A stretch of DNA of 64,000 bases from Candidatus Latescibacterota bacterium (lineage in GTDB: Bacteria; Latescibacterota; UBA2968; UBA8231), in NCBI GenBank assembly GCA_965206595.1, contig OZ242214.1:5312001-5376000 (forward strand), read 5' to 3'. Below, piece after piece: positions 19,215 to 19,598 of the stretch (positions are counted from its first letter, which is position 1; each line of letters opens with the position of its first letter). A program made the translations under genes and the position numbers. The notes under the pieces are model-generated. The model worked only from the letters and a program-made list of their open reading frames with translations, was not told the origin of the DNA and did no database searches.

Positions 19215-19598
19215 ATGATGTTCAACAAGATCCGGACCGCGATAGTCGCGGTCGCAAGCAACCCCGTCGCGGTGGTGAAGGACGCCATGGAGTCCGCCGC
19301 AAAGGCGATCGAAGCCACCCTCGACGGAACGTTCCTCGGCGAGTTCATCATGAGCGAGAGCGGCCGGGTGAACCCGGAGCAGGGTTTCCGGCTCGCCTGG
19401 GGAGCGGGGGTGATCGTCGCCGCCATGGTCGTGCTGGGCACGCCGCCCCAGGCGGCGGCCCACCATTGCAAGAACTATTCGTATCTCTATTGTGACTCCA
19501 CCGCGCAGTGCCAGGCGTGGTGCCGGGTTGCGAAGGGCTGCTGGGGGGGCAGTTGTACAACTCACTGTGCGGAGCACACAGAGTGTCGTTGCAGTTAA
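19215..19598 (+). CDS. Precursor peptide: Flp-pilin-like leader and helix plus Cys-rich defensin-like core
   Basis: RBS GAGGAGG; FIMSESG|RVNPEQG followed by a hydrophobic stretch; PQAAA; 45-aa C-terminus with 9 Cys including CxxxC, GxC and CxC. Confidence 0.8.
   Translation: MMFNKIRTAIVAVASNPVAVVKDAMESAAKAIEATLDGTFLGEFIMSESGRVNPEQGFRLAWGAGVIVAAMVVLGTPPQAAAHHCKNYSYLYCDSTAQCQAWCRVAKGCWGGSCTTHCAEHTECRCS

Follow-up and report, generated by a model that had tools for sequence, protein, structure and literature searches.

A cysteine-rich, defensin-like peptide precursor with a putative hybrid Flp-type and Sec signal beside a prepilin-type peptidase in Candidatus Latescibacterota

The 64,000-nucleotide stretch of DNA analyzed here (positions 5,312,001 to 5,376,000 of contig OZ242214.1, assembly GCA_965206595.1; hereafter, the window) belongs to a Candidatus Latescibacterota bacterium and contains, at 19215-19598, an open reading frame (ORF) that is best read as a precursor from which a sponge-associated bacterium would make a secreted defensin-like peptide rich in disulfides, with a predicted core fold. 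The gene lies directly downstream of, and on the same strand as, genes for two redoxins and an A24 (prepilin-type) aspartyl peptidase. Judged from its sequence, the precursor would combine an Flp-type leader with a Sec signal and would be cut twice, by the dedicated A24 peptidase after G50 and by signal peptidase I (SPase I) after A82, a reading to which we give about an even chance. Two cuts are the most economical account because leader positions -7 to -1 are the best conserved, the catalytic dyad of the A24 peptidase nearby is intact, and the AxA motif is kept.

In the proposed pathway, the precursor would insert into the inner membrane with its N-terminus in the cytoplasm and its C-terminus outside, and the A24 peptidase would take off the cytoplasmic leader after the near-invariant G50. 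Two membrane-anchored redoxins, one with a CxxC and one with a CxxS motif, would introduce or rearrange the four disulfides once the core has been translocated, and the SPase I cut after A82 would free a core of 45 residues beginning with H83. The cut at G50 might time this release or might clear the signal remnant.

Architecture of the precursor

The elements of the precursor are as follows.

19204..19209, + strand: Shine-Dalgarno-like GAGGAG, 5 nucleotides upstream of the precursor ATG, read from the sequence
19215-19598, + strand: precursor ORF, 127 amino acids plus stop; 25 homologs besides itself
19215..19328, + strand: N-terminal extension, residues 1-38, clade-specific; predicted helical with low confidence (predicted local distance difference test [pLDDT] 51-57)
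19341..19364, + strand: Flp-type leader end, E43-F44-I-M-S47-E48-S49-G50; proposed A24 cleavage after G50
19365..19385, + strand: polar linker R51-G57 (+1 to +7), the n-region of a Sec-type signal according to column counts
19386..19439, + strand: hydrophobic h-region or transmembrane segment F58-G75, including the conserved W62; predicted helix 54-73
19440..19460, + strand: c-region T76-A82 with A80-A81-A82; proposed SPase I cleavage after A82
19461..19595, + strand: predicted mature core H83-S127, 45 amino acids with 9 Cys; cysteine-stabilized alpha-beta, defensin-like

Positions 19341-19460 correspond exactly to E43-A82. A reading made from the letters alone (the sequence-only reading) had described here a cryptic Flp-spaced cleavage motif, a hydrophobic helix, and a second, SPase I-like site in T-P-P-Q-A-A-A before H-H, and the precursor does read in this way, with EFIMSESG50, R-V-N-P-E55-Q-G57-F58, the hydrophobic stretch L60-L74, T-P-P-Q-A-A-A82, and then H-H-C and the cysteine-rich tail. 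The basic residues of the Sec-type n-region are R59 and R51. The leader of about 50 amino acids, rightly called unusually long, is a peculiarity of the precursor's own clade; in distant members the Gly is preceded by about 13-25 residues and the N-terminal extension, whose mean pairwise identity is 43% in 27 members, is absent. The AlphaFold2 model places G50 in the loop that leads into helix 54-73 and G57 within this helix (confidence low to moderate). No Pfam or NCBIfam match was obtained for the precursor. Metatranscriptome contigs from two sponge libraries of one study span 18971-19152 and 19186-19643, with 0-9 differences per piece, and cover next to nothing else in 17400-20700; the libraries may contain DNA and uncovered parts prove nothing, and the contigs are a weak hint of precursor expression.

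Conservation of the module

Residues 39-82 of the precursor are termed the module. A search with its profile among 1.84 billion representatives retrieved 156 clusters at expectation values (E) up to 0.001, nearly all of proteins with about 75-135 amino acids, and no Flp-type pilin was among these 156. Columns were counted in the 147 cluster representatives that share the N-terminal module, with P0221 (2803 amino acids, a spurious match) removed. G50 (-1) is Gly in 138/146 and Ala in 3, i.e., one of the two in 141/146, in keeping with its proposed place as the last position of an Flp-type leader. Upstream, Phe occupies -7 (F44) in 128 of 144 representatives, -4 (S47) is Ser in 104, Asp in 17, and Asn in 11 of 146, -3 (E48) is Glu in 71, Ser in 30, and Thr and Asp in 12 each, and -2 (S49) is Ser in 104/146 and Thr in 28. 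Downstream, positions +1 to +7 are largely polar, with Val in 100/145 and Ala in 30 at +2 (V52), mostly Gln, Lys, or Glu at +6, and Gly in 105, Ser in 18, and Ala in 11 of 147 at +7 (G57); W62 is Trp in 127/146. The AxA motif, also expected to be conserved, is so: its -1 position (A82) is Ala in 116 and Ser in 6 of 135, its -3 position (A80) is Ala in 99, Val in 10, and Thr and Ser in 5 each of 135 (Ala, Val, Thr, Ser, or Gly in 121/135), and -2 (A81) is a free, variable position.

E55 fared differently. This residue had been taken for the conserved Flp Glu at +5, but the column holds Arg in 77, Gln in 25, Glu in 13, and Lys in 10 of the 147 representatives, and Lys is also found in the paralog of the same genome. 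The homolog alignment that the sequence-only reading had named as a check on G50, E55, and AxA was accordingly favorable to the first and the last but not to the Glu. In the set of 40 diverse modules on which the search profile was built, G50 and W62 are the sole invariant residues and F44 is kept in at least 90%. Among 27 close members, mean identity is 84% in the module, 37% in the core, and 23% in the core without its Cys columns.

The pattern F..[DES]E.G....E.G occurs 3 times in the six-frame translation of the precursor's own genome (10.6 million residues), followed by a hydrophobic stretch only in the precursor ORF, and the stricter F..[DE]E.G....E.G has 0 occurrences in the same translation. 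We regard the motif as partly confirmed: it appears to be more than chance, and conservation splits it, with G50 kept and E55 lost. Within the two-cut model, G50 is favored over G57 as the A24 site. A cut after E-Q-G and before F, which had been considered to fit pilin rules as well, fits less well and is less likely, with Ser at G57 in 18 of the 147 representatives and with G57 placed inside the model helix.

Two kinds of leader variants were seen. Part of the leader motif occurs twice in L012 (1477-1869) and L013 (1474-1860), which read T-S-E-S-G, nine residues, and N-E-S-G. In two members of one genome (L043, 14014-14304 and 16406-16816) the cleavage Gly is altered, to Ala in one and by a swap of Gly and the next residue in the other; these two are candidate natural tests of the cleavage Gly.

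Relation to Flp pilins and class III signal peptides

Two real Flp pilins (L064, L065) were taken from two plasmids on which the Pfam Flp_Fap model, run as a control, found Flp at 76 and 63 bits; a tblastn search of the A24 peptidase against plasmids, made to reach Tad loci, gave no match. The leaders of the two pilins end in F-A-R-N-E-S-G and F-L-R-D-E-Q-G, followed by A-T-A-I-E-Y-G-L, i.e., they have Phe at -7, Asn or Asp at -4, Glu at -3, and Gly at -1 (n = 2), and the module columns agree with the Flp leader pattern F-x-x-[DE/N]-E-x-G at these same positions. When the module profile was aligned with the two pilins by hhalign (47 columns, probability only 53%, P 1.4e-4, the Flp side being a profile of 2 sequences), G50 fell on the cleavage Gly, E55 on E5, and G57 on G7, the register that had been proposed. 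The Flp consensus claimed for the precursor holds for the leader from -7 to -1, but the Glu at +5 and the Tyr at +6 inside a hydrophobic N-terminus are not kept, and the Gly at +7 is only partly so (105/147).

The part before the G50 cut thus looks Flp-like and the part after it does not; from R51 on, the precursor looks like a complete Sec signal, with a basic n-region, an h-region, and small residues at -3 and -1 of the c-region in the sequence columns; the Arg at +5 in 77/147 representatives also makes the n-region basic. As in class III signals, the leader is hydrophilic and ends with Gly or Ala. For class III signal peptides, PMC10191384 describes 20-25 mainly hydrophobic residues directly after the Gly, whereas the module has 7-9 polar residues between G50 and an uncharged stretch of 15-18 residues.

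Compared with Flp prepilins and TadV/CpaA peptidases, the system shares the leader end F(-7)-x-x-[S/N/D](-4)-E(-3)-x-G(-1), a Gly at +7 followed by Leu or Phe, the hhalign register, a peptidase with two catalytic Asp residues and without a methylase domain, and a pilin-like gene adjoining the peptidase gene. It differs in that the module has no Pfam Flp match, +5 is mostly Arg, +6 is not Tyr, and a polar spacer follows the Gly, and furthermore by the AxA site and the folded cysteine-rich domain after the helix and by the lack of TadA/B/C or a secretin in the same genome.

The A24 peptidase and the absence of filament machinery

Upstream of the precursor, the cassette consists of three genes.

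16885..17445, + strand: thioredoxin-fold redoxin 1, with C-G-A-C and an N-terminal hydrophobic anchor; Pfam AhpC-TSA at E 1.4e-11, plus Redoxin and Thioredoxin
17442..18038, + strand: thioredoxin-fold redoxin 2, with C-P-Y-S (CxxS) and an N-terminal hydrophobic anchor; Pfam AhpC-TSA at E 7.1e-10
18013..19101, + strand: A24 (prepilin-type, GxGD) aspartyl peptidase, 362 amino acids; PF01478 at 40.9 bits, cut-off 26.5

The A24 peptidase looks active. Its catalytic D40 and G99-D100-x-K102 are invariant in 26 homologs, the Pfam scan gave no methylase domain, and a small beta-rich cytoplasmic insert is found at about residues 265-326. The AlphaFold2 model has a mean pLDDT of 78.9, and its best Foldseek match in the PDB is FlaK 3s0x (prob 0.92-0.96, E 0.17-0.55). 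Prepilin-type peptidases that act on proteins other than classical pilins are found for archaeal class III non-pilin substrates (PibD/EppA-type), and FlaK resembles the present enzyme also in having a soluble insert; a weak EppA match was obtained as well. In the archaeal substrates the helix is kept, whereas the present system has no filament machinery and has a second, SPase I-type site. In the known cases, the archaeal substrates also require an ATPase and a platform for assembly.

The genome of the window is a single 7.05-Mb contig, 92.9% complete, and harbors a further cassette of identical gene order near 2.44 Mb; a related Candidatus Latescibacterota metagenome-assembled genome (MAG) has the same synteny. 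The precursor profile (A1) matches in 22 of 168 phylum genomes, all of one family (Latescibacterota f1; 21/75 plus the genome of the window), with up to 6 copies per genome. Genes of the A24 subfamily are present in 28 of 76 family genomes, including all 22 that are precursor-positive, and in 19 of these 22 the A24 gene has a precursor no more than 5 kb away; two fragmented assemblies and G129 are the exceptions. In the examined loci the two genes are mostly 0-110 nucleotides or about 1.8 kb apart on the same strand, and four further cassettes (L021, L030, L039, L047) likewise have a redoxin pair beside the A24 gene. In 3 of the 6 A24-only genomes (L047, L049, L050), a divergent module ORF was found beside the A24 gene.

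The Pfam models Flp_Fap, N_methyl, T2SSE (PF00437), T2SSF (PF00482), and Secretin (PF00263), each of which matches in our control genomes, have 0 matches in the genome of the window, where the two cassette genes are the only A24 matches above the Pfam cut-off. From the sequence data, the A24 peptidase has no other visible substrate in this genome. Flp_Fap reached the cut-off in 0/168 phylum genomes, and a T2SSE match is missing in 20/22 precursor-positive ones. In the account of PMC10191384, pilin, peptidase, ATPase, and platform are the four parts of every type IV filament, and the prepilin peptidase works on its own. Since pilin, ATPase, platform, and secretin are all missing from the genome of the window, a pilus-anchored domain is excluded there.

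This bears directly on the possibility that the precursor is a true Flp/Tad pilin with a cysteine-rich head, built into a pilus. Such a pilin would account for the Flp-like leader register and the adjoining A24 gene, but it would lack T2SSE, T2SSF, secretin, and any other Flp or N-methyl pilin in its genome as well as T2SSE in most carrier genomes, its E5 and Y6 are not kept, and no Flp_Fap match exceeds the cut-off anywhere in the phylum set; we consider it hardly credible. The two-step processing proposed in the sequence-only reading, in turn, is supported by the conserved sites and the adjacent A24 gene, whereas its pilus-anchored alternative falls in this genome.

A prepilin peptidase that occurs here without the other three filament parts and is tied to cysteine-rich peptides points to a non-filament use. 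Possibly, this sponge-associated clade has lost all type IV filament machinery and the surviving A24 peptidase and Flp-derived leader became a private maturation route for cysteine-rich peptides, a tentative scenario that we place somewhat below an even chance. If this scenario is true, this would be the first bacterial A24 peptidase used solely for the maturation of peptides instead of pilins, and the precursor would carry a hybrid class III/class I signal that is cut on both faces of the membrane, a signal type for which current predictors and defensin screens are not built. Our literature search found nothing linking Latescibacterota with a prepilin peptidase, and it found Latescibacterota and defensin mentioned together only in unrelated reviews.

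One cut or two

Several observations weigh against a second cut. Pfam models of pilins fail on the module: Flp_Fap (PF04964) has no match in the 27 members even at E up to 10, and neither this model nor N_methyl matches in the genome of the window. The loss of the Glu at +5, the polar residues that separate G50 from the uncharged stretch, and the modest hhalign probability obtained with only two Flp sequences point in the same direction. No module ORF was found in the stretch examined of the other 3 A24-only genomes (L048, L051, L052), and the linkage counts come from related genomes and are not independent. Moreover, a canonical Sec signal with an AxA site can be processed by one peptidase and gives no reason for an A24 cut.

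The precursor might accordingly possess an ordinary Sec signal with a conserved N-terminal extension, be matured by SPase I alone, and leave the A24 peptidase with another substrate or none; F-x-x-S-E-S-G would then have another role, for instance to target the precursor, to pace its translocation, or to bind a cytoplasmic factor. In favor of this, all three signal regions (n, h, and c) and the AxA motif are canonical and conserved, the spacer after G50 is unlike class III signals, and no pilin model matches. Autotransporters, too, are known to have conserved extended signal regions; they resemble the precursor in having a conserved N-terminal extension before a normal Sec signal and differ in having no dedicated peptidase and no Flp-like motif. 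An SPase I-only maturation would, however, leave the A24 peptidase idle in a genome that offers no other candidate substrate (there is no pilin, and the cassettes contain the only A24 genes), it does not fit the tight A24-precursor linkage in 19/22 genomes, and the best-conserved residue is a Gly in the context of an Flp-type leader. We judge it unlikely.

The order of events could also be the reverse, SPase I freeing the core first and the A24 peptidase then acting as a signal peptide peptidase that clears the leader plus helix or releases the cytoplasmic part, which might have a function of its own. PMC4985597 groups A24 enzymes with signal peptide peptidase and presenilin as GxGD proteases, and a module with 84% identity, far above a plain signal peptide, would fit a fragment that has a role by itself. 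On the other hand, the known A24 enzymes described in PMC10191384 cut full-length prepilins unaided, and the N-terminal extension is poorly conserved (43%) and missing in distant members. This order appears decidedly unlikely.

Three further signal types were considered for the module and rejected. A twin-arginine (Tat) signal would need RR at +5/+6, which is possible in at most 15/147 representatives; a lipoprotein signal was dismissed by eye, the residues before the first Cys being mostly A-D/H-x without a lipobox; and a double-glycine bacteriocin leader does not agree with Ser or Thr at -2, nor was a C39 peptidase seen among the scanned neighbors.

The defensin-like core and other cargoes

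In the model of the core (residues 90-127; pLDDT 82-85), a helix spans 96-107 and two strands span 112-117 and 121-126. The leading Foldseek matches are all plant defensins, scorpion toxins, or brazzein (prob up to 0.97, TM-score to target 0.45-0.83, E at least 0.19), and a PDB sequence profile gave brazzein-type matches at E of at least 0.3. The fold is assigned because these matches are uniform and because of the Cys framework; the Foldseek and PDB profile E values are all above 0.1 and have no significance. The cysteine-stabilized alpha-beta regular expression of PMC11561630 matches residues 85-126 of the precursor and 23 of the 27 close members, the 4 misses being truncated, compared with 29 of 41808 frames of 60-150 amino acids in the same genome. 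It matches in only 44 of the 147 module-bearing representatives, in which 8 is the commonest number of Cys residues (59/147); therefore, several kinds of cysteine-rich cargo carry the tag, with the defensin-like one in the precursor's own clade. The core in the window has an odd number of Cys residues, 9, with C118 as an extra one to the 8 conserved in the family.

From these sequences, the module appears to be a shared export and maturation tag on many cysteine-rich cargoes in Latescibacterota f1. In members of another genus, it heads proteins of 200-340 amino acids in which cysteine-rich units are repeated and an FlgD_ig domain (E about 1e-11) forms the C-terminus; Por_Secre_tail and CHU_C match as well, but more weakly.

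L022 12108-13010 and 13093-13989; L023 13489-14166: long members with one to three cysteine-rich units and an FlgD_ig or type IX secretion system (T9SS)-like sorting domain
L026 2639-3298 and 3379-4029; L049 5810-6841; L053 1878-2717: further long members of the same architecture

SprA is present in 5/5 genomes tested, including that of the window, which also has two genes for S26 signal peptidase (SPase I; PF10502). Long cargoes that end in a T9SS-like sorting domain have to be freed from the inner membrane, and the AxA cut is therefore favored; this argument comes from other genomes only, and the precursor in the window has no such tail.

With the same restriction, these members argue against a retention of the core in the membrane, which the sequence-only reading had considered. 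Retention would follow if the signal were of class III only, the A24 peptidase removing the leader, the helix anchoring the cysteine-rich domain on the periplasmic face, and AxA being a mere linker. Prepilins behave in this manner, as do archaeal non-pilin class III substrates, and the helix is highly conserved. Yet conserved -3 and -1 positions around a free -2 are a signature of selection by SPase I, the h-region is short (15-18 residues), and members with a sorting domain must be released, so that a purely class III signal seems distinctly improbable.

The conserved tag is a handle for finding such peptides. If the module and the A24 peptidase do form a private maturation route, the roughly 150 tagged clusters would be a rich and still unused source of disulfide-rich peptides, dropped as membrane proteins in previous screens for defensins. 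PMC11561630 reports 74 bacterial cis-defensins in five classes from Proteobacteria, Acidobacteria, and Actinobacteria, obtained with a pipeline that discarded sequences with predicted transmembrane segments; this filter would have removed the precursor family. Bacterial cis-defensins such as actifensin and actinomycesin share with the core the C...CxxxC...GxC...CxC framework and the predicted alpha-beta fold. They are described with plain signal peptides, whereas the present family is from Latescibacterota and has 8 conserved Cys residues, a hybrid signal, and a cassette of A24 peptidase and redoxins.

A further parallel is offered by conotoxin-type precursors, in which a strongly conserved pre-region precedes a hypervariable mature region. 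The precursor family shows the same contrast on a fixed Cys framework (84% versus 23%) and likewise has several copies per genome (here up to 6). Conotoxin-type precursors are animal genes, and the likeness is one of evolutionary pattern only.

Gene neighborhood and minor observations

Downstream of the precursor, two further genes follow on the same strand.

19771..20661, + strand: protein of 296 amino acids, CBM9-like lead; atlas neighbors partly with PF06452 (score 0.97)
20699..21691, + strand: tandem duplicate of the CBM9-like gene; the direct repeats are 88-89% identical and have a period of about 1035 nucleotides

The 296-amino-acid protein has no Pfam match. The paralogous cassette as well as L005, L030, and L039 also have similar ORFs of about 300 amino acids after the precursor. 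The tandem duplication (19639-20665 and 20680-21695) comprises the CBM9-like gene and its upstream spacer, with the period and identity given above, and this stretch has a G+C content of 0.54 versus about 0.66 around it.

A degenerate third member of the precursor family is found in the genome of the window at C1:2091202-2091477 (G000; L003, L057), where the module is kept, a Cys-rich core is lacking, and the frame ends early. A C-terminal A24 fragment lies on the opposite strand about 4 kb from it (C1:2086382-2086969), and an N-terminal A24 fragment, 82% identical over residues 5-92, is located at C1:597019-597282, with no module ORF within the 5 kb examined. Two loci first listed as relatives (L007, L008) were discarded, the matches being transmembrane stretches of transporters instead.

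In the related MAG, a transposase-like ORF of 450 amino acids, recognized by eye, is situated between the precursor and the CBM9-like genes (L005 6790-8142, - strand). The locus L021 (G140:C2:2361000-2373000) comprises the A24 gene, an ORF of 205 amino acids with a weak FMN_bind match, two redoxin genes, and three precursor genes. Each of the first two precursors is followed by an FG-GAP protein of about 730 amino acids with an FlgD_ig tail, a downstream partner unlike the CBM9-like one in the window.

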